Below are positions 15,178 to 42,762 of a DNA stretch of 64,000 nt, piece by piece. Each line of letters opens with the position of its first letter. Position 1 is the stretch's first letter. This stretch comes from an uncultured delta proteobacterium. GTDB lineage: Bacteria > Myxococcota_A > Polyangia > Polyangiales > Polyangiaceae. The stretch spans positions 2,633,561-2,697,560 of the forward strand of contig CAWIUL010000011.1 in assembly GCA_963839305.1 (NCBI GenBank), read 5' to 3'. The notes beneath the pieces were generated by a model that was not told the DNA's origin, made no database searches, and saw nothing but the letters and a program-made list of their open reading frames with translations. Made by a program: the position numbers and the translations under genes.

Positions 15178-16551
15178 ATGTCCCTCTCCCGTCGTACCTG
15201 GCAGAACATCAACTTGATCGGTGACTGCCTGCTGCTGTTTCTCGCAGCCAGCGCAGCGACCGTCTTCCCTGGCGGCATCCACTGGATGGTCGCCCTCGGC
15301 ATGGCCACCGGCGCGATGTTGCTGTGGATTGTCGGCAGCCGTGTGCTTCGGCATTACGACATCGGAAACGGCCGCGGAATCCCGGGCGATGTGGCGCTCA
15401 CGCTCGTCTTGCTCTTCGCCACGGTCGTGCCGATGTTCGCGCTCCGCTACATGGTGCCGCGCTACGCGGCCGTCGCGGACATGACGCGCTTCGTGACCGT
15501 GTTCGTGATGGGCGTCGTGTGGCTTCGCCTCTTGACGAGCTGGCTCAAGACGCGCCCGCCGCAGCCGCCCGAGGAGATTTTGATCGTCGGTGTCGGCCCG
15601 CTCGGACGTCACACGGGTCTCGAGATTCATGCGCAAAAGCGCAACCGACGCGTGACCGGTTATCTCCGCTTGGTCGACGAGCCGGAGCACAAGCGTTTGC
15701 CCGCGGGCATCTTCGGCATGGTCGACGAGCTCGAGAACGTGCTGAAGACGCACGTCGTCCACGAGGTTTACCTCGCGAGCAGCGAGGAGACGCACCGCGC
15801 GCAGATCCAAGAGGCGATCCGCGTCTGCGAGCGCTTCGGGATCCCGTTCGCGCTTCCGGCGAACCGCTTCCGCATCGCGCGCGCCGAGCCGCGCGATCGC
15901 GCCGCGCTGGGCGACGGCTACGTCCACTACCTGTCGTTCCGCCACAAGCCGGTGCAGCTGCTGCTGAAGCGCGCGTTCGACATTTTCGCGTCGAGCGTCG
16001 CGATCGCGCTGCTCTCGCCGATCTTCATCGGCGTGGCCATCGCGATCAAGCTCTCGTCGAAGGGCCCTGTGCTCTTTCGCCAGCCGCGCGTCGGTCGCTA
16101 CGGGCGCATGTTCAACATGCTCAAGTTCCGCTCGATGGTCGTGAACGCCGAGGAGCTCAAGGCGAAGCTCATGGCGCAGAACGAGCAGACCGGCCCGGTC
16201 TTCAAGATGACGCGCGACCCGCGCGTGACGGGCATCGGGCGCTTCATTCGCAAGTACTCCATCGACGAGCTGCCGCAATTCATCAACGTGCTGCGTGGCG
16301 AGATGACCATCGTCGGGCCGCGCCCGCCGGTTCCGAGCGAGGTCGCTCAGTACGAAGCGTGGCAGCGCCGCCGTCTTTCCGTGCGCCCCGGCATCACTTG
16401 CGTGTGGCAAGTGAGCGGACGGAACCAAATCGGCTTCGAGGAGTGGATGTATTTGGACATGCAATACATCGACAACTGGAGCATCACGCAGGATTTCCAG
16501 TTGATTTTCAAGACCGTGCCGGTCGTGCTCTTCGGCAAGGGCGCGAGCTGA
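15178..16551 (+). CDS. Polyprenyl-phosphate glycosyl-1-phosphate transferase (WbaP/EpsZ-like initiating enzyme).
   Basis: Five N-terminal TM segments. C-terminal bacterial sugar transferase domain (KFRSM, DELPQFINVLRGEMTIVGPRP). Start chosen at ATG 15178. Confidence 0.9.
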   Translation: MSLSRRTWQNINLIGDCLLLFLAASAATVFPGGIHWMVALGMATGAMLLWIVGSRVLRHYDIGNGRGIPGDVALTLVLLFATVVPMFALRYMVPRYAAVADMTRFVTVFVMGVVWLRLLTSWLKTRPPQPPEEILIVGVGPLGRHTGLEIHAQKRNRRVTGYLRLVDEPEHKRLPAGIFGMVDELENVLKTHVVHEVYLASSEETHRAQIQEAIRVCERFGIPFALPANRFRIARAEPRDRAALGDGYVHYLSFRHKPVQLLLKRAFDIFASSVAIALLSPIFIGVAIAIKLSSKGPVLFRQPRVGRYGRMFNMLKFRSMVVNAEELKAKLMAQNEQTGPVFKMTRDPRVTGIGRFIRKYSIDELPQFINVLRGEMTIVGPRPPVPSEVAQYEAWQRRRLSVRPGITCVWQVSGRNQIGFEEWMYLDMQYIDNWSITQDFQLIFKTVPVVLFGKGAS

Positions 16552-16602
16552 TCCGCAGCGCGTCTGTCCGCGGCGCGGTGTTTGCTCTACACCTGGGTGG
16601 AT

Positions 16603-17028
16603 ATGCCCATGGCCCGACGTGTCGTTCTCGTCGTCGAAGACGAACCCCTCCAGCGTGAACGTGTGAAGCTCTGGCTCGAGTCGGAGAAGTTCGATGTCGA
16701 GTGCGCTTCCGAGTACAGCTCGGCGCTCAAGGCGCTCGACAAGACGATCCCCGCCATCGCGTGCGTCGACCTGACGCTCCCGCGAGAGTCCGGTTTGGAC
16801 CTCGTGGAGGCGATCCGCAAGCACACCAAGGGCACTGCGGTGCCGATCATCGTGATGAGCGAGCGGCACTCGCCCGAGGACATGGCCGAGGCCGAGCGCG
16901 TCGGCGCGAACGCGTTCTTGAAGAAGCCGTTCGCGAGGCCGCTGCTCCTCAAGTACGTGCGGTGGATTCTCGACGGCCCCCACGCGAGCTCTCCGAGCAT
17001 CCGCGGGCTACGTCGCGTCGAGGGCTGA
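16603..17028 (+). CDS. Single-domain response regulator (receiver).
   Basis: VVLVVEDE...D...VDLTLP...K receiver motifs. Confidence 0.8.
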   Translation: MPMARRVVLVVEDEPLQRERVKLWLESEKFDVECASEYSSALKALDKTIPAIACVDLTLPRESGLDLVEAIRKHTKGTAVPIIVMSERHSPEDMAEAERVGANAFLKKPFARPLLLKYVRWILDGPHASSPSIRGLRRVEG

Positions 17029-17064
17029 GTCCACGACGGCGCGTCGTTCGTTTCGTCGGCCGCG

Positions 17065-17826
17065 TCACGTTACCCTCTTGCTTGGTCCGCCGCGCATCTG
17101 GCGCAAGACCACGAGCGCGAACTCGGGATCACGCAGCAGATAGCGGCGCCAGAGACGCTTCGGCTCGCGGCCGAGCCGGTAGAGCCACTCGAGCCCTGCG
17201 CGCGACATCCACTGCGGCGCGCGCGGGACCACGCCCGCGAGGAAGTCAATCGTCGCGCCGACGCCGAGGAGCACCGCGGGCTTCACGCGCTCGGCGACGG
17301 CGTAGGCGAAGAGCTCCTGCTTGGGCGCGCCGAGGCCGACGAGCACGAGGTCCGGCTCGGCGCGCGCGATCGTCTCCGCGAGCTCGCGGTGCGCGTCGAG
17401 CGACGCGCTCGCCCGCACACGCGGAGACGAAAAACCTGCGACGCGAATATGTCGCTCCTCGAGCGCGCAACTTGCACGCTGTGCGCTGCCCTCGTGGCCG
17501 CCGAGGAGGTACACGCGCCAGCCGCGTTCCGCTGCGCGTTCGAGCAAGGCCGGCACGAGATCCGAGCCGGATATCTTCTCGGGCAGCGGCTCGCGTAGCG
17601 CGCGCGAAGCCCACAAGACGGGCATCCCGTCGACGACCGAGAGGCTCGCGTGCTCGTAGGCCTCGCGAAAAGCCACGTCGTGCTCGGCCATGACGACGTG
17701 GTCCACGTTCGGCGTGAACACAGTGCCGCCAGTCTTGTCGTCGATCATGCGCTCGATGGCCGCGAGGGCGTCGGCGAAGGTCACACGATCGATGGGCAGG
17801 CTTCCGATTCGAACCCGATCCTTCAC
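17065..17826 (-). CDS. WecB/TagA/CpsF family glycosyltransferase.
   Basis: Family-typical full-length sequence. GTG start overlaps the stop of the upstream gene (GTGA). Confidence 0.85.
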   Translation of the reverse strand: MKDRVRIGSLPIDRVTFADALAAIERMIDDKTGGTVFTPNVDHVVMAEHDVAFREAYEHASLSVVDGMPVLWASRALREPLPEKISGSDLVPALLERAAERGWRVYLLGGHEGSAQRASCALEERHIRVAGFSSPRVRASASLDAHRELAETIARAEPDLVLVGLGAPKQELFAYAVAERVKPAVLLGVGATIDFLAGVVPRAPQWMSRAGLEWLYRLGREPKRLWRRYLLRDPEFALVVLRQMRGGPSKRVT

Positions 17827-19460
17827 GATGGAGCGGAGTCTTTCTTGTGCAAAGACCCGGCCACGCGCTGCGTCACGCGTGGGTGGACTTCGGCATCGGG
17901 CGCGCTCACGAGCGAGCCCGGCGGGACGTCGTCGCGGACCACGCAGCTCGCCATGATCTTCGAGTCTTCGCCGATCGTGATCGGTCCGAGGAGCGTCGCG
18001 CCCGGTCCGATGTGGACGTTGCGGCCAACGTTCGGCGCGCCGGTCGCAGATCGGCCGGAGGCGGCCTGCGCAGCCGTGGATGCCGACTCGCCGAGCGTGA
18101 CGTTGTGAAAGAGGATCGCGTCTTTCCCGACGCGGGCCTTCGGCGAGATCGCGAGGCCCATGCCGTGGACGATCTGCACGCCGGGCTCGATCTGCGCGTC
18201 CCAGTGGATGTCGGAGCCGTAGAGGTGGCGGATGAGGCGCGACGTGATCATCGCGAGCGGCGTCGCGCCCGCGTCGCGGAAGAAGTGCATGAGCCTCACG
18301 GCGACCATGATCTGGAAGCCGATTCGGACGACCGCGTCGCGCGGAAGATCGCCCTCGTCGCCGTCGCGGCCGCCGTATTTCGCGCCGTAGTGGCGGAGCG
18401 TCGCGTGGTCCTGGCGGACTGCCTCGCGCAGCTGGCTCGCCGCGACGAGCGTTCGTTCCGTGCGCGACGCGGGGCCCGCGCGGCGCGCGTAGTCGAGCCA
18501 GTCGGTGATCGCGTTGCCGATCGCGCCCGCCTCGGCGCGCATGCCGCGCGCGTACTCGAGCCCGAAGACGAGCGTCATGCCGCGGAGCGCCGCGCGCTCG
18601 AGGCCCGCGCGCTCGAGCCGCGACGCGAGCGCGACGGCGGCGGTCGCGAGCTTCTCACCCGCGCCGGGCGCCGCCAGCGAGAGGACGAGGAGCGGTCGCG
18701 AGAGCGACGAGAGCTCGCGGAAATAGCGCCACGGGCTCGCGTGCGGCGCGTCGGGGTGCTTCTTGCCGATTCGCGAGTCGAACGTGCCGTACGCCTTCGC
18801 GCGCTTGCGAAAACCCGCGAGGCTGTCGCGGTCGGACGAGTGGATGCTCGCCGCGACGTCGCTCAGGTAGAACGTCGCGCCGTTCTTCTCGAGGCGCACG
18901 CCGAGCTCGGCGTCCTCGGAGTGGCCTAGCGTCGCGTCGAAGCCGCCCGCGCGGAGGTACGCGTCGCGCTTCATCGAGAGGTTGCCCGTGTAGACGTTGG
19001 GCCCGCGAAACGTCACCTTGCCCGAGATCACGTCGTTCGCGAAGCGCTCGAGGACGTCCGCGTGGAAGCGCTCGAAGAGCTCGAGCTTCATCTCGGGGTC
19101 CGGCTTGATGCGACCGAGCACGACCGCGTTCGGATCGCGATCGTGGATCGCGAGGTGCGCGGCGACGAGGCCCTCGTGGACCTGCATGTCGTCGTCGAGG
19201 AAGAGGATCACCGGGCCGCGCGCGCGTGTGACGCCACGGTGTCGCGCGGCCGCGGCTCCCGCGTTCTCTTGGCGCTCGACGACGAGCGTGAACGGGACGT
19301 CGAGGGCGCGGAGGCGCGGCGTCGGATCCTCGCGCGAGCCATCGTCGATGATCACGACCTCGAGATCGCTCGCGACCGTCTGCGCGGCGAGCTGGCGCAC
19401 GAGGCGCTCGATCGAGGCGCCGCGGTTGTAGGTCGCAACGACGATGGAGGCGCGTATCAC
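17823..19460 (-). CDS. Family 2 glycosyltransferase fused to a C-terminal serine-acetyltransferase-like hexapeptide domain.
   Basis: N-terminal GT-A fold (SIVVATYNRG, DDGS, DDD). The C-terminus resembles CysE: helical region plus a left-handed beta-helix with GVQIVHGMGLAI...G. No stop between the two domains. GTG start with GGAGG 9 nt upstream. GTGA overlap. Confidence 0.75.
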   Translation of the reverse strand: MIRASIVVATYNRGASIERLVRQLAAQTVASDLEVVIIDDGSREDPTPRLRALDVPFTLVVERQENAGAAAARHRGVTRARGPVILFLDDDMQVHEGLVAAHLAIHDRDPNAVVLGRIKPDPEMKLELFERFHADVLERFANDVISGKVTFRGPNVYTGNLSMKRDAYLRAGGFDATLGHSEDAELGVRLEKNGATFYLSDVAASIHSSDRDSLAGFRKRAKAYGTFDSRIGKKHPDAPHASPWRYFRELSSLSRPLLVLSLAAPGAGEKLATAAVALASRLERAGLERAALRGMTLVFGLEYARGMRAEAGAIGNAITDWLDYARRAGPASRTERTLVAASQLREAVRQDHATLRHYGAKYGGRDGDEGDLPRDAVVRIGFQIMVAVRLMHFFRDAGATPLAMITSRLIRHLYGSDIHWDAQIEPGVQIVHGMGLAISPKARVGKDAILFHNVTLGESASTAAQAASGRSATGAPNVGRNVHIGPGATLLGPITIGEDSKIMASCVVRDDVPPGSLVSAPDAEVHPRVTQRVAGSLHKKDSAPS

Positions 19461-19990
19461 GTCTTGACGCCTCCTCGCGCCGGCATCTTCACGGTCTGAT
19501 GAGCGGGATCGGGCGCCTTCGCCGTCGCTTCGCTCGGGGCGGGCTGCGCGACCTTCGCGCGTGACTTCTTGCGCGCGAGGATCGTCCCCACGAATTTGTC
19601 GTGGCCGATCTCTTCGACGGTCTTCACTGCGGCCTTCATCGGCGTCTCGCCGAGGCGCACGACGAGCACCGCGGTGTCCGCTCCCTTCGCGAGCGCGATC
19701 GAAGTCGGGTTCTGCTGGATGGACGCGAGCGCGATGATCACGCAGTCGCCCTTCTTCACGTGCTCGTCGATTTCCTTCTTGTGGTAGTCGACGAGGCGCA
19801 TCGTGATGTCGCGCAGATCGAGCACGACGGTGGGCTCGCCGCGGTATTGCCACGCGACCTCGGCGATCGCGCTCGCGACGTCGAGTGACGCGATTTGGCG
19901 CATCGTGGGTACGACGGCGAGCACGCGCCACGTCTTCTTCTGCAGCGCGAGCCAGAGGCTTTGGAGCTCGAATTCTGCTTCGGGGGTCAC
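19457..19990 (-). CDS. Degenerate BY-kinase-like (ParA/MinD-fold) domain protein lacking the Walker A motif.
   Basis: Fold-like pattern VLAVVPTMRQIASLDVASA...VVLDLRD in place of the PGEGKST P-loop. GTG start overlapping the GT2 stop. Lies between a GT2 and the PCP gene, the position typical for the Wzc kinase half. Confidence 0.55.
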   Translation of the reverse strand: MTPEAEFELQSLWLALQKKTWRVLAVVPTMRQIASLDVASAIAEVAWQYRGEPTVVLDLRDITMRLVDYHKKEIDEHVKKGDCVIIALASIQQNPTSIALAKGADTAVLVVRLGETPMKAAVKTVEEIGHDKFVGTILARKKSRAKVAQPAPSEATAKAPDPAHQTVKMPARGGVKT

Positions 19991-21198
19991 TTCGCGGCCT
20001 TCTCCCTCGTCGTACGAACCCACGTGCTCGGTCGGTCCGACGCGGCCAGTCCGAGCTTCCAGACGACGTACACCGGCGCCCACGCGAGGTCGAGCGCTGC
20101 CCGCGGCCCGAGCCGCGTGAGCTGAACACCACGGAAGACGTACGCGCCGACCATGGCGCCCGCGACGGTCCACGGGATCCACGCGACCGGGCGCGAGCCG
20201 GTCGCGATCGCGAGGGCTGCCGTGATCGCGGACGCGCCGAGGCCGAGTACGATCGAAACACCGAGCTTCGAGAGCGGCGGCGTCAGGAGATCGGCGCCGA
20301 GGTCGAACAGCATCGCGTTGCGCTCGACGATACCGCGCTTCAAGAGGCGCCAGCCGTGCTTGTCCGTGAGCTCGCGGCGGCCTTCTTCCCAGCGTTGCCG
20401 CTGCGAGCGCGCGGCCTTGCCCGTCGAGACCATCTCGCCGAGCACCGCGGCCTCGCCCACGTACGCGACGCGATGGCCCGCTTCGCCGAGGCGAATGCCG
20501 TACTCGACGTCCTCGACGATCGAGAACGCGTCGTGAGGGACCTCTCGGAGGACGCTGCACGCGAAGCCCATCCCGTTTCCGCGCAGGCCGCACGAGACAC
20601 CGAGTCGCTCGCGCGCGTTCGAGCGCACCACGTGGAAGAGCGACATCGCGATGACCATGAGCCGCGTGCGCCAAGAGGCCTCCGGGTTTCGCACGCCGTA
20701 CTCGGCTTGCACGGCGACCTCGCCCGCGGAGAAGCGCGCGGCGAACGCCATGAGCAGGTTCTTCGTGACGCGCGTGTCAGCGTCGACCACGACGACGGCG
20801 TCGGCGTGACCTCGAGCGAGCGCCTCTTCGAACGCGCGCGCGAGCGCGTAGCCTTTGCCGCGTTTCTCCGCGTCGACGCGCTCGATCACCTCGGCGCCAG
20901 CCGCTCGTGCGCGAGACGCGGTGGCGTCGCTGCAGTTGTCCGCGACGACCACGACGCGAAAGCGATCGCGCGGATAGTCCACGGCGAGCAGGCTCGCGAC
21001 GGTCTCGGCGATGTTCGCCTCCTCGTCGTGCGCGGGGACGATCACGTCGAAGTACGGGCGCTTGCCGTTCGCCTTGGGCGCCGCCTTCGGCTTCGACAGC
21101 GCGGTGAGCGCGCCGAGGTAGCCGGACGCGGCGAGCGTGGGGAGTGACGCCGCGGCTACCGCGCCGTCGAGGAGCCGAAAGGCGGTCCGGAGTCTCAC
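19987..21198 (-). CDS. Family 2 glycosyltransferase, membrane-anchored.
   Basis: DVIVPAHDEE, VVVADNCSD, VVVDAD, QRQRWEEG (QxxRW), C-terminal TM helices. GTG at 21198 overlaps the PCP stop. An alternative ATG lies at 21249. Confidence 0.8.
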   Translation of the reverse strand: MRLRTAFRLLDGAVAAASLPTLAASGYLGALTALSKPKAAPKANGKRPYFDVIVPAHDEEANIAETVASLLAVDYPRDRFRVVVVADNCSDATASRARAAGAEVIERVDAEKRGKGYALARAFEEALARGHADAVVVVDADTRVTKNLLMAFAARFSAGEVAVQAEYGVRNPEASWRTRLMVIAMSLFHVVRSNARERLGVSCGLRGNGMGFACSVLREVPHDAFSIVEDVEYGIRLGEAGHRVAYVGEAAVLGEMVSTGKAARSQRQRWEEGRRELTDKHGWRLLKRGIVERNAMLFDLGADLLTPPLSKLGVSIVLGLGASAITAALAIATGSRPVAWIPWTVAGAMVGAYVFRGVQLTRLGPRAALDLAWAPVYVVWKLGLAASDRPSTWVRTTREKAAK

Positions 21199-22676
21199 GT
21201 CTCGAGCTCCCCCAGGATCGGCAACTTGAGCTTCCGCTCGACCTGCCACGGTTCGACGATGACCCCGAGGCGCCGCTCGCGCAGCACGACGCCGCCGAAC
21301 GCGAAGACGAAGATCGCGAACGCGATGCCCAAGAAGAGCGCGATCGGGTTGGGGTTACGCGGGCGCCTCGTGACCTCGGCGGGGTGGACGATGCTGAAGC
21401 GGTATTTGTGCGCCGTCTTCGCGATGTCGAGCTCGATCTGCGCGCCGTCGATGCGGTTCTCGAGATCCGCGTATTTCTGGGCGCATTGCTGCAATTTCAT
21501 CTGCGCGACGGTGACCGCGGGATCCTCCTCCATGATGAGCCGCGAGCTCGGCGAACCCGTGAGCGCGGCGATCGTCGCGGCGGACGAGTGCGTCGTCGAC
21601 GCCGCGGCGATCGCGGTCGCGAGCGGCGGCGCGTTCACGGCCACCTTGTCGATGAGCGCGCGCTCCTCGTTGCGCAGGCGCGCGAGGTCCGGCGGCTCGG
21701 CCTGAGCCTCCACGAGCTTCTGCTTGAGCGCGACGACCGTCGGGTGCTCGGGCCTGTACTGAACGAGCGCGTCCGAGAGCTGCTTGTTCAGCTCGTTGAT
21801 GCGCTGCGTGCGCTGCGACTCGACCTGTTGGATCTCGTTGCGCTTGTCCTGGAGCGCTTGGAGGAGCGCGGGATCGACGGCCGGCGCGTTGGCGCTTGCC
21901 TTCGGCGCGGGCGGCGCCATGAAGCGCGGCTGAGCGACCGCGTTGTTCGCCTTCGCCGCCGGTTTCTTCTTCATCTCCAGCGACTCGAACTCGTCGCGCG
22001 CCTCGTCGAAATGCGACTTCTCCTCTTTCGCGTGCTGCTGCAGAATGTCGATCGCGTCGTTGATGACGCTGATCTCCGCGTCGTAGCGCGCGTCGATGAA
22101 GTTCTTCTCGACCGCGGAAGCGAGGTCATACGCCATCTGCGCGTCGGTCCACTCCGCGGTGATCGTGATCGTCGTGTCGTCGCTCGTGACGGTGAGCCGC
22201 TTCTCGAGCACTCCTTCGATCGCTCGCATCCGGTCTTGCTCATCCGGCCGTCCCGCGAGCTTCTCGGTGACGCGATCCCTCCAACGGAGGAGGGTCGGCC
22301 GCGACCCCGCCCACCGGTCGACGAGGTTCACTTGCTTGATGAGCCCGACGAGGTTGTCGTGCTGGAGGATCGTGTCGCCGACGTTCTTCGTGGGGTTGTC
22401 GGCCTCGCGCGGGACGGTGCGGTTCGGGTTTCCGAGCGCGGGGAGCACCAGGTTGCGCTGCGCGAGGATTTTCACCTCGGTCGAATACGTCCGCGGGTAG
22501 AGGACGAACAGCGCACCGCCCAGACCGAGCGACAGCACGAGGAGGGCGATGAACCTGTACGGGTTCCTCCTCGGAGCGCGCAGCACGTAGCCGACGAAGT
22601 CGGAGATGGCGTGTAGGTCAAGCCCCTCCTCTTCCTCCTCGTCTTCGTGCCGATTGTGATCTTCGCCTTTGGGCAT
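21195..22676 (-). CDS. Polysaccharide co-polymerase (Wzz/Wzc periplasmic domain) protein without a kinase domain.
   Basis: N- and C-terminal TM helices flank a long coiled-coil periplasmic region. Acidic N-terminus. Ends right after the second TM. Confidence 0.8.
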   Translation of the reverse strand: MPKGEDHNRHEDEEEEEGLDLHAISDFVGYVLRAPRRNPYRFIALLVLSLGLGGALFVLYPRTYSTEVKILAQRNLVLPALGNPNRTVPREADNPTKNVGDTILQHDNLVGLIKQVNLVDRWAGSRPTLLRWRDRVTEKLAGRPDEQDRMRAIEGVLEKRLTVTSDDTTITITAEWTDAQMAYDLASAVEKNFIDARYDAEISVINDAIDILQQHAKEEKSHFDEARDEFESLEMKKKPAAKANNAVAQPRFMAPPAPKASANAPAVDPALLQALQDKRNEIQQVESQRTQRINELNKQLSDALVQYRPEHPTVVALKQKLVEAQAEPPDLARLRNEERALIDKVAVNAPPLATAIAAASTTHSSAATIAALTGSPSSRLIMEEDPAVTVAQMKLQQCAQKYADLENRIDGAQIELDIAKTAHKYRFSIVHPAEVTRRPRNPNPIALFLGIAFAIFVFAFGGVVLRERRLGVIVEPWQVERKLKLPILGELET

Positions 22677-22742: not shown

Positions 22743-23159
22743 ATGTACGCCGCAGTCGGTTTCGACCTCGTCGACGTACGTGAGGTGCAAGACTCTATCG
22801 ATCGCTTCGGTGAGCGATACCTCACGCGCGTCTACACGCCAGCGGAGATTGAGTACGCGATGAGCGCGCCCGATCGCGCGACGGCAGCGCGCAGGCTGGG
22901 GGCGCGCTTCGCTGCCAAGGAAGCCACGATCAAAGCGCTCGGCGCGAGCGAGCGGGGCATTAGTCCTCGCGAGATCGAGGTCGCGAGGAGTGCTGACGGC
23001 GCGATCCGGATCATCTTGCACGGTCCGGCATTTGCTGCAGCTCGGGAAGTGGGTGCAACGGCGTTCGTCGTCAGTGTGTCGCATCAAGGCGATTTGGCGG
23101 GCGCAGTCGTAGTCATGGAGAAAAAGCCGACGAGTCGAATCAGGTGGAAGAAGAAATGA
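22743..23159 (+). CDS. 4'-phosphopantetheinyl transferase (AcpS-type).
   Basis: AVGFDLVDVREV...RF...EA..KA.G. AcpS-size (138 aa). Confidence 0.8.
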   Translation: MYAAVGFDLVDVREVQDSIDRFGERYLTRVYTPAEIEYAMSAPDRATAARRLGARFAAKEATIKALGASERGISPREIEVARSADGAIRIILHGPAFAAAREVGATAFVVSVSHQGDLAGAVVVMEKKPTSRIRWKKK

Positions 23160-24561: not shown

Positions 24562-24569
24562 GGCAAACC

Positions 24570-32524: not shown

Positions 32525-32566
32525 CGAGCGTTCGACGTCAGAGCACGGAGCATGCCGTGTCCTGTG

Positions 32567-35628: not shown

Positions 35629-35645
35629 CACCTCTCCGCTACCAC

Positions 35646-37136
35646 ATGATCGACGAGCACAAGGCACGAAGACGGCACGAGACGCAGCTCGCCATGCGCA
35701 ACATGGCGATCGTGGGCACTTCGCTGGTCGCCACGTGGAGCGTCGCGCTGCTCGTGCGGCTCGTCCTCCCGCGCCGGCTCGGACCGGCGATCTTTGGGCA
35801 ATACAGCTTCGCTGAGGCGCTCGCCATCAACGGCTTCGCGTTCCTCGGGCTCGGCGTCGACATGTACATCCAGAAGGAAATCCCGCGCAGGCCGGAGCAC
35901 GCGTCGGACTTCTTCGGCGGGACGCAACTCATTCGCGTGGCCGGCAGCGTCGTCATACTCGCCGTGCTGGCGCTCACGGCGCGGCGCGCAGGCTACGGCG
36001 CGGAGGTCGTCGGCACCACGCTTGCTTTTGGCGTTGCACAGCTGTGCGTACTGCTCGCCAACACGTGCGCCACGCTGCTCTACGCGGCCCGGCGCGTCGG
36101 CAGGCTCTCGGCGCTGAACATCGCGACGAAGGTCGTCTGGGCGGCCGGCGTGAGCCTCGCGCTCGTGCGCCGCGCGAGCTTGTGGACCTACGCGGCGGTC
36201 GCGGTGCTGAGCGAGGCGATTCGGCTGGTCGTGCTCTATCGCCTCAGTCAGACCGTGGCGGACGTGCGCGTGCGCATCGAGCCGCGCCAGACGTTCACCG
36301 TCCTCAGGCGGAGCGCGCCGTTCTGGGTGAACCAGGTCGCGATCGTCCTCTACTCGAAGATCGACGTGGCGATCATGGGCATGCTCGTGACCGATCGCGA
36401 GCTTGGGTTCTACGGCGCCGCGACGAACATCTCGAGCGTCGCGATGCTGATGTCGCCGTTCGTGGGATGGGTGCTGACGCCGCAGCTCGCGCGCGTGGTG
36501 GACGATCGCGTGGAGTTCGTGTCGCTGCTCCGGCGCTCGTTCGAGTGGACGCTGGCGCTGGCCATCCCGATCGCGATGATCCTCGGGCTCGGCGCGGACG
36601 TGATCGTCCACGGGGTCTTCGGCGCGAAGTTCGACCCCGCGATCGGCGCGATGCGAATGCTGATGCCGATCTTCGTCGTCGTCTACGTCGCGATGCTCGG
36701 CGCGACGGCGATGATCCTGCTCGATCGATCGTGGACGGTGACGATCGTCACGCTGCTCTCGCTCGTCGCGAATGCATTGCTCAACCTGATCGTCGTGCGC
36801 CCGGCTTGGCACGCGCTCGGCGAGGGCGGCGCGGGCGTCGGCGCGGCCGCGATCTCGGTGAGCACGGAGGCGGTGGTCGCGGTGACGTACATCTGGTACC
36901 TGCGCCGCGAGATCCTCGACGCGCGAAACGTCACGTCGGCCTTGAAATCGCTGGCGGCGTGCGCCGTCGTCGTGGCGTTCCACGTGCTCAGCCCCGACCT
37001 GCGCGCTTGGCGCCTGCCGATCGATGTGGTGCTCTACAGCGCGCTCGTCGTCGGGACGCGAGCCGTGCGAGTCTCGGAGCTTGTCGCGCTCGTACGAACC
37101 ACGTTAACTCGGAGAGGAAGTCATGCGAATTCGTGA
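35646..37136 (+). CDS. wzx: Wzx-type oligosaccharide flippase (polysaccharide biosynthesis protein, MOP superfamily).
   Basis: About 14 TM helices in the Polysacc_synt family pattern. The start may be the internal ATG at 35694. Confidence 0.8.
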   Translation: MIDEHKARRRHETQLAMRNMAIVGTSLVATWSVALLVRLVLPRRLGPAIFGQYSFAEALAINGFAFLGLGVDMYIQKEIPRRPEHASDFFGGTQLIRVAGSVVILAVLALTARRAGYGAEVVGTTLAFGVAQLCVLLANTCATLLYAARRVGRLSALNIATKVVWAAGVSLALVRRASLWTYAAVAVLSEAIRLVVLYRLSQTVADVRVRIEPRQTFTVLRRSAPFWVNQVAIVLYSKIDVAIMGMLVTDRELGFYGAATNISSVAMLMSPFVGWVLTPQLARVVDDRVEFVSLLRRSFEWTLALAIPIAMILGLGADVIVHGVFGAKFDPAIGAMRMLMPIFVVVYVAMLGATAMILLDRSWTVTIVTLLSLVANALLNLIVVRPAWHALGEGGAGVGAAAISVSTEAVVAVTYIWYLRREILDARNVTSALKSLAACAVVVAFHVLSPDLRAWRLPIDVVLYSALVVGTRAVRVSELVALVRTTLTRRGSHANS

Positions 37137-37710
37137 GCTGATCCTCGTGTGTGCGCTCGGTGCGGGCGCATGCGGCCCCTCGGGGTCGTACGTCTGGGTG
37201 AAAGACCTTCCGCCAACCGGCGATTTCTCGACGGACTACCTCATCGCCACTGGCGACGTGATCAGTGTGCGTGTGATCAATCAAGATTCGATGAGCACAC
37301 GCGCGCGCGTCCGCAACGACGGCCGCGTGGCGCTCCCGCTCGTCGGTGACGTCGAGGTCCGCGGGAAGAAACCGGCGTCGGTGCGCCTCGAGCTCGAGGC
37401 GCGCCTCAAGGAGTACCTCGTTGCGCCGAGTGTCACCGTGAACGTCGAGGAGGTGGCACCCGTGACGGTGAGCGTTCTCGGCGAGGTCACGCACCCGGGC
37501 GTCGTGCAGATGGACGGCTCGGGCGGCGTCGCGCAGGCGCTCGCGTCCGCGGGCGGCCTCACCGACTACGCGTACCGCGATCGCATCTTCGTCGTACGCT
37601 CCGGTGGCAAGCCTTCGCGCGTGCGCTTCACGTTCGACGAGCTCGCGGGCGGCGATTCGGCTGCGTCGCGCTTCACGCTGCGACGCGGAGACGTCGTCGT
37701 CGTCGAGTGA
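37123..37710 (+). CDS. Short outer-membrane polysaccharide export (OPX/Wza-like) lipoprotein lacking the C-terminal OM-spanning helix.
   Basis: Lipobox LGAGAC. Poly_export (PES) motif PLVGDVEVRGK with SLBB-like regions. Only 195 aa. Confidence 0.8.
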   Translation: MRIRELILVCALGAGACGPSGSYVWVKDLPPTGDFSTDYLIATGDVISVRVINQDSMSTRARVRNDGRVALPLVGDVEVRGKKPASVRLELEARLKEYLVAPSVTVNVEEVAPVTVSVLGEVTHPGVVQMDGSGGVAQALASAGGLTDYAYRDRIFVVRSGGKPSRVRFTFDELAGGDSAASRFTLRRGDVVVVE

Positions 37711-37790: not shown

Positions 37791-39263
37791 TCAGCCGTGG
37801 GCAAGTTCATCGTCTTCAGCATCCTCGGCGCGACGGTCATCATTCCCCTCATTTATGCGCGCGAGGGGCGTCGTACCAAGCGAGGGCTTCGGAGGACCCT
37901 CGTCGCCTTCGGCGTGTACTGCGCGCTCTGGGTCCTCGCCACGCTCTTCATCGCTCCCCGCCTTTGAGGGCTTCGCCTCGGGCCACGCGCCGCTGAGGAC
38001 TGGCACGCGGATCGCGACGCCGATCGAGACCGCCATGAGCACGTCCGGCGAGAGCGTGACCCAGCCCATGTCGCCCCACATCTGCAGGATGAACGTCGTG
38101 ATCGTCGTCAGCCCCAAGATCGCCGCGACGCGCACCGTGCCCGACCGCGAGGCGCGCACGGATATCAAGAGGAAGAACGACGCGACGACGAAGAGCTGCC
38201 AGCACAGCCAGAAGCCAAGGATCCCGCTGAACGCGAGGAGCCCGAGCACGCTGTTGTGCGGGATGAACCGGTACTGCGGGAAGACCTCCTTGATGCTGAG
38301 CGCGACGGACTGCTCGTCGTACTCGTGGCCCCACCCCGTTCCGAGGAGCGGGTTCGTGCGCAGCGTCTGGACGAGGTTGTAGTTCTCGATGTCGCGCATC
38401 TCGCTCGACGTGTCCTGGTGCGTGCCGAACATCGTCGAGATCGAGCCGACGGGCTTGAACACCCCCTCGGTGCGGCCCCAGCCGACCGCGACGTAGAACG
38501 CGAAGAGCGGGACCGCGCCGATCATGAGCCAGTTCATGCGCCGCTTGAAGCGCGTCCGCGGGAGTACGTAGTAGAAGAGCGCGAGGCCGACCATCAGGCT
38601 CAGCCACGCGAGGCGCCGGTTGTTCCACTTGATCGCGAGCGCCAGCGGGACGCACGCGGCGATCATCCACAAGAACGAGGTGAGCCTACGACGCTCGATC
38701 GCGTTGGCGATCACGACGAGCATGCCCGTGACGAAGAGCGCGCTGTCGGCGTGCGTCGTCATCACCTGCAGCGGCGGGTCCAGCCCACGCGCGACGGTCA
38801 AGTAGAAGACGATGAGCACGAGCGCGCGATAGACCGCGGCGAAGAGCACCACCTTGCCGAGCGCCGCGATGTGCTTCGCCGTGCGGCACGTCGCCGCGAC
38901 GGCGAACGCGAGCGCGAGCGACATGACGAAGCTGTGGAGCTGCCACATCGTTTGCCGCACGTCGCCGCCCCGGATGACGCCCCAGATCCAGAAGCCCGCG
39001 ATCGAGAGCAGGGCGACCTTCGCCGACTTGACCACGGGCTTCGCGCGGTCCTTCGACGCGCCCTTCGCGCCAAGCGCGACGAAGAGCGTGATGAGGAGCG
39101 CGATGTCCCAGAGTGGGAATTTGATGCCCGGGAGCGGCTTGAAGATCGCCGTGCCGATCGTCGTGAGCGGCGTCTCCCACTTGCCCGAGAAGGTGTCGCC
39201 CTCGATCTCCGCCGTGAGGGCCAGCCAGGCGAGCAGGAGTGTGAAGCGTCGGGCCACGATCAA
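37791..39263 (-). CDS. wzy: Wzy-type polysaccharide polymerase / O-antigen ligase family membrane protein.
   Basis: About 11 TM helices with a large periplasmic loop, in the Wzy_C family pattern. Acidic C-terminal tail. Confidence 0.8.
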   Translation of the reverse strand: MIVARRFTLLLAWLALTAEIEGDTFSGKWETPLTTIGTAIFKPLPGIKFPLWDIALLITLFVALGAKGASKDRAKPVVKSAKVALLSIAGFWIWGVIRGGDVRQTMWQLHSFVMSLALAFAVAATCRTAKHIAALGKVVLFAAVYRALVLIVFYLTVARGLDPPLQVMTTHADSALFVTGMLVVIANAIERRRLTSFLWMIAACVPLALAIKWNNRRLAWLSLMVGLALFYYVLPRTRFKRRMNWLMIGAVPLFAFYVAVGWGRTEGVFKPVGSISTMFGTHQDTSSEMRDIENYNLVQTLRTNPLLGTGWGHEYDEQSVALSIKEVFPQYRFIPHNSVLGLLAFSGILGFWLCWQLFVVASFFLLISVRASRSGTVRVAAILGLTTITTFILQMWGDMGWVTLSPDVLMAVSIGVAIRVPVLSGAWPEAKPSKAGSDEERGEDPERAVHAEGDEGPPKPSLGTTPLARINEGNDDRRAEDAEDDELAHG

Positions 39264-39266
39264 TCC

Positions 39267-40655
39267 TCAGAGAACAAACCTGGGTTCGTGCCAAACGAAC
39301 GTGAGGAACAGGTTCGCCGACCAGAACTCTCCGGTGAAGGGGTCATGCTGCCAAGCGCCGCGGAGGCCGAGGCCCGCTTCGATGCGCTTGTCGAGCCTGC
39401 GCAGGACCTCGGCCTCCCCCGTGACGTACGTCGCGTCGAGCGACGAGCCCCAAAGGCTGCGCACGAACGCGACGTCGCCCCTGAGCGAGTGCCTCTCGTC
39501 GATGCGCTTGAGCGCGGCGGCGCCGACCTCGAGTCGCGGGTCGATGATGCCATAGTGCATGTCCACGACCGGGCCGACGCGCGTGTAGACGTACGCCGCG
39601 GGTCGCGGCAGGGTCATCGGATGGAGGGCAGGACGATCGGCCTGCGCGTTCTGAAGCGTGTACGTGAGGATCGCGCCGAAGACCGGGTATGGCACGACGC
39701 GGTACGGTTGCGCGGGGTTGCCGTCTTTGAACGTGAGCGTGTCGATTGACGACGACGGGTAATAGATTCGTTGCGAGCGGTCGTCCGTGTCGTTGACGGT
39801 CACCCGCGCGAGCGTCGCGCCGCCGACGAGATCGATCATGATTCGCCTCGCGATGGCGTGACTCCACACCTCGCGCACGCCCACCCACTGGCCGCTCGGC
39901 GCGCACAGCGGAGGATTCGGGGTGGTGAGGTTGAGCTGCGGCCCTCCGGTCGCCGGATCGCACGGGCGTTGCGTCGAATCCGCGGCCGTTGCATCGCCCT
40001 GCGTGACGAGGGTGTCGCGGCGCGTGACGCGTTGCGCGACGGTGAGGTCGACGTGCGGAACCGACACGAGGGGTACGAGCGCGCGCGAGGGTTCGTCGAG
40101 GCCACCGTTCAGGCTGTAGCTGGCCGAGATCGAGAACGTCGTCTTGCGGTGGGTGTAGTGCAGCATCGCGCTCGTGGACGACGAGCCGTACGTCACGGTC
40201 TCGCTGGCGCAGTGAGCCAGGTCGGTGCAGGGAAGGAGCTGCACGGGCGGTGGGCCGCCCAGCACCTGTCCCGGCGCGATGGCGTACGGCGTGAGGAACG
40301 AGAAGTTCATCTGCCCGAACGAGGCGCCTTCCGACGCGCTGATGCCCCAGTGGCGAGACGCGTACGAGGCCGACGTCTCCGCATACTGGAAGAGCAGCGG
40401 CGCTTGCGGCGTGGTGAAGAGCATCTCGAGATCGGGCTCGGTGATCTGCGCCGCGTAGCTGAACCTGAAGTCGAACTGGCGCGACTTCGTCTCGAAGTGC
40501 GCGTAGGGCGACGTCATCAGATCGAGCCCGGCAGTCGGCACCTGCGCGCCCGTCGCCGAGATCGTCGGGGTCAAGCGCAGGCGAAGCTCGTTGACCGCGC
40601 CGATGTCGATCGTGGAGAGGAGACCGCTCGCGACGAGGACGATGCTGCCCAGCAT
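39267..40655 (-). CDS. Predicted outer-membrane beta-barrel protein, probable partner of the short OPX.
   Basis: Alternating amphipathic beta-strand pattern, with aromatic residues at the C-terminus (…HEPRFVL). Gene context between wzy and the glycoside hydrolase. Confidence 0.55.
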   Translation of the reverse strand: MLGSIVLVASGLLSTIDIGAVNELRLRLTPTISATGAQVPTAGLDLMTSPYAHFETKSRQFDFRFSYAAQITEPDLEMLFTTPQAPLLFQYAETSASYASRHWGISASEGASFGQMNFSFLTPYAIAPGQVLGGPPPVQLLPCTDLAHCASETVTYGSSSTSAMLHYTHRKTTFSISASYSLNGGLDEPSRALVPLVSVPHVDLTVAQRVTRRDTLVTQGDATAADSTQRPCDPATGGPQLNLTTPNPPLCAPSGQWVGVREVWSHAIARRIMIDLVGGATLARVTVNDTDDRSQRIYYPSSSIDTLTFKDGNPAQPYRVVPYPVFGAILTYTLQNAQADRPALHPMTLPRPAAYVYTRVGPVVDMHYGIIDPRLEVGAAALKRIDERHSLRGDVAFVRSLWGSSLDATYVTGEAEVLRRLDKRIEAGLGLRGAWQHDPFTGEFWSANLFLTFVWHEPRFVL

Positions 40656-40659
40656 TGCG

Positions 40660-42762
40660 TCACTCGACCGCTACACCGATGGGCGCGACGAGGTGCGCGT
40701 CGATGACGCTGATCGAATAGGCGGGCAAGGTGAGCTTCACGTGGCCCGTCGCGGCGGTCGCCGGCGTGCTCGTGAACGCGTCGCCCTGGCCCGTGTAAGT
40801 GTACGCGGTCGTCTTCTCGGTCTCGCCGCACGATCCCATGTCGACGTCCGCGGCGATCGCGGCATCGGGCGAGAAGTTGAGCACGACGAGGACCACGTGC
40901 TTGCCGTCGCGATCGCGCGACGCGAAGAGCGACGTCTGGAGCGAGGCCTTCGTCGGGATGGAGAAGTCCTCGAAGCGCGCTCCCTTGCCGTCGAAGTTAC
41001 GATATGCGTTGAACGCGGCCGCAGCGGGCGAACCAGCGGGCGGGACGGTCCAGTAGTACGCCGCGGTCACGCCGTACTCGCCGAAGCGACCGAGCGCCTC
41101 CGCGTCCGCGAGCCCGCCGCTCATGTGCGGCTCGCCGCCGAAGCTCCACTCGCCGATCATGATGCCGAGCCCCGGGTAGCTCTCGTCGATCCACTGGCGC
41201 ATGCGCGGCAGCAGGTACACCGGTTCGTTGATCCACGACTCGTCGGTGTAGCTGCGATCCCAGAGGCCGCGCGTCATGTTGATGCGGAGCGCGGCGGTCT
41301 TCGGATCCGAGGCGGCGGAGTAGACGTTCTGCCCCTGCGGGTAGAAGTGCAGGTCGAGGAGATCGAGCAGCCTCGTGTTCGTCTTGTCGGCCTCGGCCTT
41401 CACGCGCTTGAGGAGCCACGGCACGAGCGGCTCGTCGCCGTGGGCGCGCCGGTCGGGCTTGATGCGGAAGCCGGCCTTCGCGTCCTTTGCGGAATACAAA
41501 TATCCGGGCCATCCCCACTCGGCGGGTCCGGCGATCTTCACGTCGGGCGCGGCCTTGCGCACCGCGGCCGCGTACTGGAGGGTCTTCTCGAGGAGCTCGT
41601 CGTACGTGGTCGGGTCGGGGTGGACGTCGCCGTGCGTGCTGTTCCAGAGGGCGGGCTCGTTGTCGAGGATGACGATGTCGATCTTGCGGCCGTCCTTCTT
41701 GAGCGCCTCGAGCCAGCGCGCGTCGAAGCTCGGATCGATGCGGATGCTCGTGCGTTCGGGAGGACCCGGCGTGACCGGCTTGCCGTCGGGTTTCATGCCG
41801 TTGCCCGCGTCCTTGCGGAAGTCGTCCACGCGCTGCTGCGCGCCGAAGACGCTCACGGGGTACGACGACGACGTCGTGTCCTTCGCGACCCAGCCGAGGA
41901 TCGGCACGGTCAGCGCGCTCGACATCCCCATGCTGACGTTCTCGTTGAAGAACGCCGAGACCGGCTTGGCCTCGACGTTCTCGAAGAACCAGTCGTTCCC
42001 TGTGTTCCAGGCGTTGAGCTGCCAGTTGTATCGCGTCGTCGGGTTGCCGCCCCAGCGGCGCGAGGTCGCATGCACCGTCGGCGGAGCCTTCGCCATCGCG
42101 TTCCACGCGATGCCGTACACGAGCGGGCTGATCGCCTTGCCGTGCGCGCGGCAGTCGACGCGGAGCGTGGCGCTCGCCGACGGGATCGGCGAAGGCGGGG
42201 GCGCGCCGCCGTCGGCGCCGGCGGCGACGAGCGCGATCTTGTCGATCAGCACGCGGTCCGAGGGCATGTCGCGAAACGCGCGCAAGACGATGCGATCGAA
42301 CGGCGCGTCGTCCGGATCGAGCTCGCCGATCGGCACGTAGACCTCTTCCCAGCCATCGGCGAGATCGGCCTTCTGATCGGCGCGCACCATCACGCGCGGG
42401 AAGATCTTCTTGTCGCGCGAGTCGAGCCGCACCTCGAGGAACTCGGCCTCACCCGGCGGCACCTTCACGTGCAACACCAAGCCTCCGAAGCGTCCCTTCA
42501 GGTTCGGCTTCGTGAGCATCCACCCGCCGCGCTTCGAAAAATCGATGCTCGCGGGGCCATGACCGATCTCGTGAGGCGACCACCCCGAGTCTTCCCAGCC
42601 GGCCTTGAGCGCGCCGTCATAGACGCTCTCGGCGATCGGGCGCGTCGCGGGGAGCGCGCCCGCCGACGACGCGAGCGGCTGTCCGCCGCGCGAGTGAGGG
42701 CATCCAAGCGCGCCGCAAGCGAGCAGTGCGAGAGCGGAGAGGTGTCGTATGCGAGTCGTCAA
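40660..42762 (-). CDS. Secreted glycoside hydrolase lipoprotein (GH44-like by motif recollection).
   Basis: Lipobox LLACGALGC, an RWGGNPTTRYNW motif and a TIM-barrel-like catalytic region. 700 aa. Confidence 0.6.
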   Translation of the reverse strand: MTTRIRHLSALALLACGALGCPHSRGGQPLASSAGALPATRPIAESVYDGALKAGWEDSGWSPHEIGHGPASIDFSKRGGWMLTKPNLKGRFGGLVLHVKVPPGEAEFLEVRLDSRDKKIFPRVMVRADQKADLADGWEEVYVPIGELDPDDAPFDRIVLRAFRDMPSDRVLIDKIALVAAGADGGAPPPSPIPSASATLRVDCRAHGKAISPLVYGIAWNAMAKAPPTVHATSRRWGGNPTTRYNWQLNAWNTGNDWFFENVEAKPVSAFFNENVSMGMSSALTVPILGWVAKDTTSSSYPVSVFGAQQRVDDFRKDAGNGMKPDGKPVTPGPPERTSIRIDPSFDARWLEALKKDGRKIDIVILDNEPALWNSTHGDVHPDPTTYDELLEKTLQYAAAVRKAAPDVKIAGPAEWGWPGYLYSAKDAKAGFRIKPDRRAHGDEPLVPWLLKRVKAEADKTNTRLLDLLDLHFYPQGQNVYSAASDPKTAALRINMTRGLWDRSYTDESWINEPVYLLPRMRQWIDESYPGLGIMIGEWSFGGEPHMSGGLADAEALGRFGEYGVTAAYYWTVPPAGSPAAAAFNAYRNFDGKGARFEDFSIPTKASLQTSLFASRDRDGKHVVLVVLNFSPDAAIAADVDMGSCGETEKTTAYTYTGQGDAFTSTPATAATGHVKLTLPAYSISVIDAHLVAPIGVAVE

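Follow-up and report, generated by a model that had tools for sequence, protein, structure and literature searches.

In a 64,000 nt stretch of DNA (hereafter the window) from an uncultured delta proteobacterium of the Polyangiaceae (assembly GCA_963839305.1, contig CAWIUL010000011.1, positions 2,633,561–2,697,560), we analysed a polysaccharide locus at 15178–42762. [quoted passage not shown] Reading frames in the window (~68 % GC) were picked by third-position GC content (GC3) and their products named via Pfam and NCBIfam scans, and with both the contiguous Wzx/Wzy-type locus proposed in a preliminary description of this DNA was borne out. Its transcription units, of which there are at least eight, alternate between the strands, and its core is in two halves, between which ~13 kb hold the aminoacyl-carrier cassette and a methyltransferase gene with an FkbH operon. 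All of the genes listed in the preliminary description are present within 15178–42762, save that a 'degenerate BY-kinase' at 19457–20023 could not be verified; the list had also left out an AcpS gene (22743–23159) and the damaged genes.

Core genes of the locus

NCBIfam holds equivalog models built on the EPS proteins of M. xanthus, and scores with these are given below as bits/cut-off. For 13 core functions, encoded by 12 genes, the best NCBIfam match was an M. xanthus Eps model (Z, W, A, D, C, U, V, Wzx, Y, Wzy, X and B). The locus is thus a relative of the eps locus, with which a comparison had been suggested earlier. Its gene order is kept in several metagenome-assembled genomes (MAGs) of the Polyangiaceae.

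The left half begins with the initiating enzyme, an EpsZ-like large monotopic phosphoglycosyl transferase (PHPT; 15178–16551, + strand), which scored 228 bits with Pfam Bac_transf and 560/800 with EpsZ, and which lies above the cut-off of TIGR03025 EPS_sugtrans (368 versus 295.55 bits). Directly 3′ of it is the gene for an EpsW-like single-domain response regulator (16582–17028, +; Pfam Response_reg; EpsW 80/200); in M. xanthus, phosphorylated EpsW activates EpsZ (PMC12802240). The opposite strand encodes an EpsA-like glycosyltransferase of the WecG/TagA/CpsF type (GT26; 17065–17826, −; Pfam Glyco_tran_WecG, 198 bits; EpsA 282/500), as well as a fusion of an EpsD-like GT2 enzyme with an EpsC-like hexapeptide O-acetyltransferase of the serine-acetyltransferase type (17823–19460, −). 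The latter has a GTG start at 19460, and matches EpsD over residues 1–306 (333/370) and EpsC over residues 368–510 (104/150). On the same strand are an EpsU-like GT2 glycosyltransferase (19987–21249, −; EpsU 500/700; Pfam Glyco_tranf_2_3) and an EpsV-like PCP-2 polysaccharide co-polymerase (PCP; 21195–22676, −; EpsV 269/800). This PCP of 493 aa spans model positions 9–482 of 484 and terminates ~28 residues past its second transmembrane segment; as such, it is without a kinase domain, as had been described.

Between the EpsU-like and EpsD-like genes lies an open reading frame (ORF; 19457–20023, −) for a small cytoplasmic protein of ~185 aa, which its position makes a candidate for an EcpK-type bacterial tyrosine (BY) pseudokinase, as ecpK of M. 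xanthus (MXAN_7447) neighbours epsD (PMC12004946). Pseudokinases of the EcpK type are stand-alone proteins with a fold like that of BY-kinases, but have neither Walker A, A′ and B motifs nor a Tyr-rich tail. The protein is without the GxxxxGK[ST] Walker A motif, has a K/R-rich, Tyr-free tail and contains a conserved 'AD..vlVVrLGeT' motif. Its sole family match was a weak one to TIGR03018 (E=0.002), searches of the PDB with phmmer and with a six-sequence profile returned nothing meaningful, and hhalign against Staphylococcus aureus CapB gave a probability of 0.1 %.

The right half encodes a Wzx flippase (35646–37136, +; Pfam Polysacc_synt_3 and Polysacc_synt; Wzx_EPS 312/800) and an EpsY-like lipoprotein of the short (D1D2-type) outer-membrane polysaccharide export (OPX) class, without an outer-membrane-spanning domain (37123–37710, +; EpsY 200/320). 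The OPX protein (195 aa) has a lipobox-like 'GAGAC' near its N-terminus, a Poly_export domain at residues 37–108 and an SLBB domain at 116–194, with nothing after it. There follow, on the other strand, a Wzy polymerase (37791–39263, −; Pfam Wzy_C; Wzy_EPS 285/670), an EpsX-family outer-membrane β-barrel that is the presumed partner of the short OPX (39267–40655, −; EpsX 32/550) and an EpsB-like GH44 glycoside hydrolase whose N-terminus is a signal or lipoprotein sequence (40660–42762, −; Pfam Glyco_hydro_44, 219 bits; EpsB 719/1250). For the barrel, our own Pfam scan returned no family, the Pfam copy used apparently being without the recent PF28089; a database protein identical to the product of 39267–40655, together with its homologues, carries a precomputed PF28089 (EpsX) assignment. 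A model of medium confidence has an outer-membrane barrel fold, for which Foldseek gave only generic outer-membrane barrels at low TM-score; its matches did not include AlgE, which has been published as closest in fold to EpsX. As these matches are unspecific, the EpsX identity rests on the PF28089 assignment. By this assignment, an EpsX-family (~18-stranded) barrel is encoded near the short OPX; the preliminary description had listed an outer-membrane barrel and a short OPX.

An aminoacyl-carrier cassette between the two halves of the core

The spacer opens with an operon whose genes from AcpS to DUF1839 (22743–26461) overlap by 4–16 bp and are translationally coupled. It is headed by a 4′-phosphopantetheinyl transferase of the AcpS type (22743–23159, +; TIGR00556, 72 bits, cut-off 45.35; TIGR00516 acpS, 61.6 bits, cut-off 59.8) and continues with the dedicated carrier protein of an aa:CP ligase (23144–23404, +; NF005480, 112 bits, cut-off 72), the gene of which overlaps both of its neighbours. 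The third gene specifies a flavoenzyme of the acyl-CoA-dehydrogenase (ACAD) fold (23401–24561, +; Pfam Acyl-CoA_dh_N, _1 and _2); its PDB matches were generic ACADs and amino-sugar nitrososynthases, which indicate no substrate, and it probably acts on a carrier-protein-bound one.

The ligase itself (24558–25475, +; 305 aa) scored 410.8 bits with NF005479 (cut-off 357) and matched the PDB structures of Bll0957 (4h2w/3mey) over residues 18–301 with E=4e-76 and 43 % identity. It consists of a class II core like that of seryl-tRNA synthetase (SerRS) without the tRNA-binding domain, and its cognate carrier protein is encoded two genes 5′ in the same overlapping operon. Residues C126, E154 and C272, which we take to be the zinc site, are invariant in an alignment that includes Bll0957. 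The operon is completed by the DUF1839 protein (25472–26461, +; Pfam PF08893, 366 bits), a predicted carrier-protein-dependent transacylase that is considered in the following section.

Further members of the cassette are a cytoplasmic, β-mannosidase-like GH2 enzyme, the gene of which is frameshifted (26463–28857, +; PDB β-mannosidases, 5n6u, E=6e-44), a fused double α/β hydrolase with a hydr2_PEP-like N-terminal half and a hydr1_PEP-like C-terminal half (32515–34356, +; TIGR03101 105/202.75; TIGR03100 140/168.45), a GNAT acetyltransferase overlapping the hydrolase stop codon (34353–34757, +; Pfam Acetyltransf_10, _1 and _7) and a third α/β hydrolase that begins with a membrane anchor or signal sequence (34762–35667, −; Pfam Hydrolase_4 and Abhydrolase_1). 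The preliminary description had listed the GH2 and the hydrolase/GNAT genes separately; comparison with other loci (denoted by L numbers) shows that these are not independent tailoring genes but members of the portable cassette that includes the aa:CP ligase. The double hydrolase is directly 3′ of GH2 in L074, Azospirillum and others, the GNAT gene comes after the hydrolase in L074, L005, L007, L027 and L039, and the third hydrolase accompanies the cassette in L074, L012 and L083. It is this continuity, complete in L074 and extending from GH2 to the hydrolase in Azospirillum, that makes the GH2, hydrolases and GNAT of the window parts of a single cassette, which here is split by the methyltransferase gene and the FkbH operon. 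Neither GH2 nor the fused double hydrolase has a signal peptide, and Pfam scans found no AMP-binding, MBOAT or DltD family among the proteins of the locus.

Predicted fold of the DUF1839 protein

An AlphaFold (AF2) model of the DUF1839 protein, computed from a 40-sequence alignment (pLDDT 91, pTM 0.89), has an α/β region at residues 1–185 and helices at 193–327. By sequence, a search against the PDB gave no matches. With the model, Foldseek returned full-length PDB matches to AziU3/U2 (E=2e-6) and CtaG (E=3e-6, TM-score ~0.6), and to CcbD, including its complex with a peptidyl carrier protein domain (E=6e-4 to 4e-3). The full-length matches have TM-scores of 0.55–0.62 over 330–370 aligned columns, at a sequence identity of 11–16 %; below them were only partial ones, to phytochelatin synthase and cathepsins. 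The model has the bipartite build of an N-terminal papain-like and a C-terminal helical domain, and C33, H128, T131, T132, H149 and D160 are invariant, C33 being within 'ESNCY' at the start of a helix (residues 33–44).

CtaG-class enzymes are peptidyl-carrier-protein-dependent amide ligases in which a papain-like N-terminal domain is joined to a helical C-terminal one; the class includes AsbE and BtrH, the latter acylating an aminoglycoside amine (PMC12865890). CcbD, which acylates an amino sugar, is described as structurally unrelated to CtaG and is cited only as a further protease-like, carrier-protein-dependent enzyme (PMC12865890). For DUF1839, a 2023 survey described a papain-like protein with a permuted C-(T/S)-H triad and, independently and from gene context, guessed that it acts on glycans (PMC10318531). 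What the predicted fold points to is the transfer of an aminoacyl group to an amine, with an amino sugar as the likeliest acceptor. The acyl donor is predicted to be a carrier-protein thioester, on the basis of the carrier protein and ligase encoded in the same operon (72–75 of 84 loci, see below).

Distribution of the cassette

Relatives of the ligase were searched in one genome per species, which yielded at least 592 loci. Co-occurrence was counted in 84 loci from four phyla, made up of the best 80 of these (Myxococcota, Beta- and Gammaproteobacteria, Gemmatimonadota and others) and four additional loci. Alongside the ligase, an ACAD was encoded in 80/84, DUF1839 in 75/84, a carrier protein in 72/84, GH2 in 60/84, AcpS in 55/84 and a fused hydr2/hydr1-like hydrolase in 49/84.

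The nearest relatives of the ligase (84–89 % identity) are in Polyangiaceae MAGs, in whose contigs the conserved order spans the left side, the middle and the right side (GH44-EpsX-Wzy, OPX-Wzx). The gene order of the locus is shared by the Polyangiaceae MAG loci L001–L006, L012, L083 and L087 (55–89 % ligase identity). In the remoter Myxococcota loci L006, L012, L063 and L083 (55–77 % ligase identity), the cassette is still beside EpsV-, EpsY-, EpsX- or EpsZ-like genes.

A link to polysaccharides is supported by 12 of the 48 loci that extend over at least 15 kb, as these have homologues of the assembly or export genes of the window within ~10 kb. We also examined 123 flanking proteins from 13 non-myxobacterial loci. 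These included eight GT4/GT1 glycosyltransferases, three PHPTs, three polysaccharide deacetylases, six glycosyltransferase-like proteins of the XrtA system and four PEP-CTERM-box response regulators (TIGR02915, best score above the cut-off). As polysaccharide loci fill only a few per cent of a genome, we infer that the neighbourhood of the cassette is probably strongly enriched in such genes. Additionally, in L009, L015 and L077 (Steroidobacteraceae and other Gammaproteobacteria) the order is CP-GH2 ... ACAD-ligase-DUF1839-hydrolase, directly beside a PHPT gene, the neighbour of which in L009 encodes a PEP-CTERM-box σ54 response regulator.

Methyltransferase gene, FkbH operon and lesions

The part of the spacer that splits the cassette begins with the gene for an S-adenosylmethionine-dependent methyltransferase (28889–29698, +; Pfam Methyltransf_25 and Methyltransf_11), which among the 84 loci is kept only in close relatives. 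The FkbH operon on the opposite strand comprises an LbH-FkbH pseudogene (30992–32524, −), an interrupted gene for a fusion of a hexapeptide (LbH) domain with an acyl carrier protein (ACP; 30327–30950, −; Pfam PP-binding and Hexapep) and, as its last gene, one for an LbH acyltransferase (29702–30163, −; Pfam Hexapep; WcaF-family match). In relatives with intact genes, the products have 707–715 aa (LbH-FkbH), 192–205 aa (LbH-ACP) and 186–198 aa (LbH transferase).

Four lesions were found in the window copy. An internal deletion of 635 bp at 31836|31837 has removed residues 222–434 of the relatives' LbH-FkbH, including the HAD 'DLDDTLWGG' motif, such that the domain matches only FkbH model positions 71–305 of 323; the complete FkbH domain with its HAD DxDxT motif is absent here and intact in relatives. 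The same gene is frameshifted (+2) within a CT repeat at ~31150–31170, the LbH-ACP gene has an in-frame TAG at ~30786–30788 where L003 has TCG, and the N-terminus of the 29702–30163 product is displaced (at ~30215–30165), with the first ~30 residues of its relatives recognizable upstream in another frame. As these lesions are of different kinds and lie in one operon, they point to real pseudogenization, and from its sequence the operon appears to have decayed in this genome. The preliminary description had counted two carrier-protein modules in the locus, of which the first is intact and the second is this pseudogene operon. A low identity of LbH-ACP to its relatives (46 %) was rejected as a further sign of decay, as two intact relatives are themselves only 42.6 % identical.

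Relatives L004, L001 and L005 possess a second LbH-FkbH paralogue adjoining a WecG glycosyltransferase gene (L004:166-2445, L001:306-3233 and L005:463-2472), fused to WecG in L001 as a protein of 975 aa. As the window has the PHPT and the response regulator at this position, the left end of the locus must have been rearranged.

Outside the FkbH operon, the GH2 gene has a +1 frameshift (a single extra base) near 26747, and the GH2 proteins of relatives (787–817 aa) align to it in two frames (26469–26756 and 26752–28854). GH2 is missing from L005, where the methyltransferase gene follows DUF1839 (L005:11886-11972). This absence indicates that GH2 may be dispensable, and not essential to the cassette in an Eps-type locus.

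Boundaries and neighbouring genes

The locus is flanked by housekeeping genes (Ada/AlkA, ribulose-phosphate epimerase Rpe, RNase E/G, P450 and NAPRTase), which makes 15178 and 42762 reasonable boundaries. A phage or plasmid origin was considered and dropped in view of these flanks and of the uniform GC content, and a scan for promoters and terminators was uninformative in this 68 %-GC window. Divergent from the PHPT gene is an ORF of 692 aa with coding-like GC3 (13026–15104, −), which had no Pfam or NCBIfam match and no counterpart in the related loci examined. On the other side, ~2.5 kb between the GH44 gene and a gene for a major facilitator superfamily (MFS) transporter (42800–45250) is missing from relative L087; it encodes a predicted lipoprotein of 330 aa without a family match (42800–43792) and an isolated MFS_3 fragment (44070–44714). 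The MFS transporter gene itself (45255–46846, −) is in two frames (46846–46127 and 46037–45261) with ~30 residues unaligned between them, and is intact in L087 (528 aa).

Comparison with known systems

The locus shares with the eps locus of M. xanthus the set of core functions, the regulator gene adjoining that of the PHPT, the kinase-less PCP, the short OPX with an EpsX-family barrel, the GH44 enzyme and a core in two halves parted by a spacer (PMC7484181; PMC9601211 for barrel and short OPX; PMC12004946 for the PCP; PMC12802240 for the regulator). It differs in that its proteins score below equivalog level, EpsD and EpsC are fused, the GT4 enzymes EpsE and EpsH have no counterpart, and carrier-protein cassettes occupy the spacer. 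The carrier-protein content is indeed unusual for an eps locus, as had been noted in the preliminary description: the words 'carrier protein', 'acyl' and 'seryl' do not occur in the paper on the M. xanthus locus (PMC7484181). Taken together, we are highly confident that the core represents the Eps-type Wzx/Wzy exopolysaccharide pathway of myxobacteria in the form that it takes in the Polyangiaceae.

For the cassette, the closest characterized relatives are the aa:CP ligases Bll0957 and Bll6282 of Bradyrhizobium and Atu2573 of Agrobacterium, reportedly described by Mocibob and colleagues in 2010 and 2013. The window ligase has the same truncated, SerRS-like class II core and a cognate small carrier protein encoded nearby, and differs from them in being located within a polysaccharide locus together with AcpS, ACAD, DUF1839, GH2 and hydrolases. 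A 2022 review called the biological role of these ligases unknown (PMC9437257), and a search for literature linking SerRS-like aa:CP ligases to polysaccharides returned only papers on DltA. With CtaG, BtrH, AsbE and CcbD, the DUF1839 protein has in common its predicted fold, a conserved and putatively nucleophilic Cys and a gene adjoining those of a carrier protein and a loading enzyme, whereas C-(T/S)-H has been reported for its triad in place of C-H-D (PMC10318531). Moreover, its donor would be loaded by a ligase akin to aminoacyl-tRNA synthetases (aaRS) and not by the A domain of a non-ribosomal peptide synthetase (NRPS), and its context is a polysaccharide locus rather than an antibiotic cluster.

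The proposed logic of the cassette is that of DltABCD, which D-alanylates teichoic acid, and of AlmEFG, which glycylates lipid A in Vibrio cholerae: once activated, an amino acid is held on a small carrier protein and from there moved to a cell-surface glycoconjugate. In those systems, activation falls to adenylating enzymes of the ANL superfamily, and transfer, at or beyond the membrane, to membrane-bound enzymes (MBOAT or LPLAT). The window instead encodes an aaRS-like activating enzyme and, as putative transferase, a soluble protein of the papain fold. A second likeness is to the EPS loci of XrtA/PEP-CTERM systems, in that the fused hydrolase of the window resembles both TIGR03101 and TIGR03100, and in that the cassette of Proteobacteria adjoins PEP-CTERM-box regulators, XrtA-system glycosyltransferases and PHPTs. 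The window hydrolase is below both cut-offs, and is as such related to the XrtA hydrolases hydr1 and hydr2 but not a member; the window genes that were scanned include no exosortase. XrtA systems pair their hydr1/hydr2 hydrolases with an activating enzyme of the acyl-CoA-ligase type, an ACP and a pyridoxal-phosphate-dependent decarboxylase, in contrast to the aaRS-like enzyme of the window, where no decarboxylase was seen. The FkbH operon, finally, recalls the FkbH/ZmaN modules that load glyceryl groups onto ACP, as in relatives an FkbH domain with the HAD DxDxT motif adjoins an ACP. Here FkbH is fused to hexapeptide-transferase domains, belongs to a polysaccharide locus and is a pseudogene in the window; the dehydrogenases that usually come with FkbH/ZmaN-type modules and make hydroxymalonyl-ACP are absent.

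Proposed pathway

By homology to the M. xanthus system, the EpsZ-like PHPT, probably switched on by the EpsW-like regulator, would start the repeat unit on undecaprenyl phosphate, and the EpsA-, EpsD- and EpsU-like glycosyltransferases would extend it, with O-acetylation by the EpsC-like domain. Wzx would then flip the unit and Wzy polymerize it, together with the kinase-less EpsV-type PCP and possibly an EcpK-type pseudokinase. The polymer would exit through a composite translocon of the short EpsY-type OPX and the EpsX β-barrel, and the EpsB-like GH44 hydrolase would act outside the cytoplasm.

For the cassette, predicted folds and gene context suggest the following course. AcpS would convert the carrier protein to its holo form, onto which the SerRS-like ligase would load a small amino acid (its known relatives use Gly or Ala), and the ACAD-fold flavoenzyme may oxidize the tethered residue. 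The DUF1839 protein, like CtaG, BtrH and CcbD, would take up the acyl group on the conserved Cys33 and pass it on to an amine; as acceptor, an amino sugar of a nucleotide- or undecaprenyl-linked repeat unit is the most plausible. As the two cassette proteins inspected in this respect, GH2 and the fused double hydrolase, are without signal peptides, we place this acceptor at the cytoplasmic face. GH2, the fused hydr2/hydr1 hydrolase, the GNAT enzyme and the third hydrolase would serve as accessory, editing or release enzymes, and in relatives the FkbH/ACP/hexapeptide-transferase operon would add a glycerate-derived acyl group. As a whole, an Eps-type pathway accompanied by an intact aminoacyl cassette and a dead FkbH operon is the explanation that we favour, and consider just about probable. 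Whether the cassette decorates the polysaccharide of this very locus we judge to be nearly an even question. The more specific proposal of a portable glycan-aminoacylation module, in which DUF1839 moves an amino acid, possibly oxidized, onto an amino sugar of the EPS, is tentative, and we lean towards doubting it in this exact form.

Alternative explanations

A number of our observations weigh against the pathway as proposed, beginning with its core. No Eps match in the locus reached equivalog level, for which reason we file it as a relative of the eps pathway rather than the same system; it has three glycosyltransferases versus five in M. xanthus, EpsE and EpsH being without counterpart, and the EcpK identity of the candidate pseudokinase could not be confirmed from its sequence. 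As several Wzx/Wzy pathways exist per myxobacterium (PMC7484181), scores as far under the cut-offs as those of EpsV and Wzx might signify a paralogous pathway for another surface polymer of a capsule-, spore-coat- or biosurfactant-like kind. We regard this as unlikely, given that Eps models are the top match for every core protein and that Eps-specific traits occur together, namely the EpsW-type regulator by the PHPT, the GH44 EpsB, the adjacency (here fusion) of EpsD and EpsC, a PCP that has no kinase domain and, in the place of ecpK, a small ORF; nevertheless, the polymer need not equal M. xanthus EPS. The state of the decorating genes raises a different question. As GH2 has a frameshift in the window and is missing from L005, the cassette may fall short of full function, and no aminotransferase or deacetylase that could form the acceptor was identified within the window. 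If the lesions were errors of assembly or sequencing, both carrier modules and GH2 would be functional and the polymer doubly decorated. In keeping with this, the window comes from a 3.65-Mb contig of a metagenome-type assembly, a conserved MFS transporter gene outside the locus is frameshifted as well, and past the single extra base in GH2 the downstream frame keeps a high GC3 and 75 % identity. The split MFS gene has either decayed or suffered an indel in assembly, a point that matters for the trust to be placed in single-base frameshifts of the window, and those of GH2 and MFS could both be assembly errors. For the locus at large this explanation is improbable, as the FkbH operon has four independent lesions that differ in kind, a clean 635-bp deletion of the HAD core and a TCG>TAG change being untypical of indel error, and as the surrounding cassette genes are uninterrupted.

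More serious is the question of whether the cassette belongs to the polysaccharide pathway at all, since it might be an autonomous, horizontally mobile pathway that landed in a variable eps spacer, with a small molecule or another envelope glycoconjugate as its product. Azospirillum ramasamyi carries it as a stand-alone six-gene operon on a plasmid, and in Rhizobium leguminosarum four of its genes lie between insertion sequence elements. A relative has a second, stand-alone copy (L074:8130-17457) on the same 2.7-Mb contig as L005, ~111 kb away. The latter copy comprises AcpS, CP, ACAD, ligase, DUF1839, GH2, hydr2/hydr1, GNAT and hydrolase genes, is flanked by unrelated ones (P-type ATPase, PPK2, Band 7, aldo-keto reductase and a phosphoketolase fragment), and may itself be decaying, as each of its genes aligns to the window proteins only in several pieces. 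Furthermore, a PHPT, PCP, Wzx, OPX, Wzy or EpsX homologue was present within ~10 kb in only 12 of the 48 loci of at least 15 kb (~25 %). The eps spacer itself is variable: in M. xanthus 18 other genes separate the two core clusters, and M. macrosporus and M. fulvus have a different, non-homologous set there (PMC7484181, PMC12004946). Given such a spacer and the stand-alone copies, chance insertion is a real alternative. The solved structural relatives of DUF1839, moreover, all come from natural-product pathways, and AziU3/U2, one of its top fold matches, is presumably not a transacylase. On the other side, Polyangiaceae lineages with ligase identities as low as 55 % still have the cassette inside an Eps-type locus, the cassette is independently tied to XrtA/PEP-CTERM polysaccharide loci in Proteobacteria, it includes a GH2 glycosidase and relatives of exosortase-associated hydrolases, and Pfam/NCBIfam scans of the window detected no NRPS, polyketide synthase or small-molecule exporter nearby. 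We therefore consider an autonomous pathway rather unlikely, though it is the alternative that we take most seriously. The 'heavily decorated' exopolysaccharide envisaged in the preliminary description accordingly stands as a reasonable hypothesis with partial support, tempered by a dead second module, a frameshifted GH2, cassettes away from polysaccharide genes and a spacer whose content varies between species.

Implications

With its core, the locus extends the M. xanthus EPS machinery of a regulator-activated PHPT, a kinase-less PCP and an OPX/barrel translocon to the Polyangiaceae, a useful if expected result. The combination of an eps core with an aa:CP ligase cassette is new, the cassette itself being widespread and the window one example of it, not a unique one. 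The aa:CP ligases, for which solved structures and in vitro chemistry exist, are now placed within a conserved cassette of up to nine genes alongside a predicted transacylase, and DUF1839 is assigned a likely enzymatic class; the defined gene set offers a testable hypothesis of aminoacyl decoration of an exopolysaccharide. If this proposal is true, it would give the aa:CP ligases their first physiological role, and would constitute, besides Dlt and Alm, a third and mechanistically distinct route of carrier-protein-based aminoacylation of surface polymers. Used in both Eps-type and XrtA/PEP-CTERM polysaccharide systems, such a route would be a new means by which bacteria change the polymers of their matrix in charge and chemistry.

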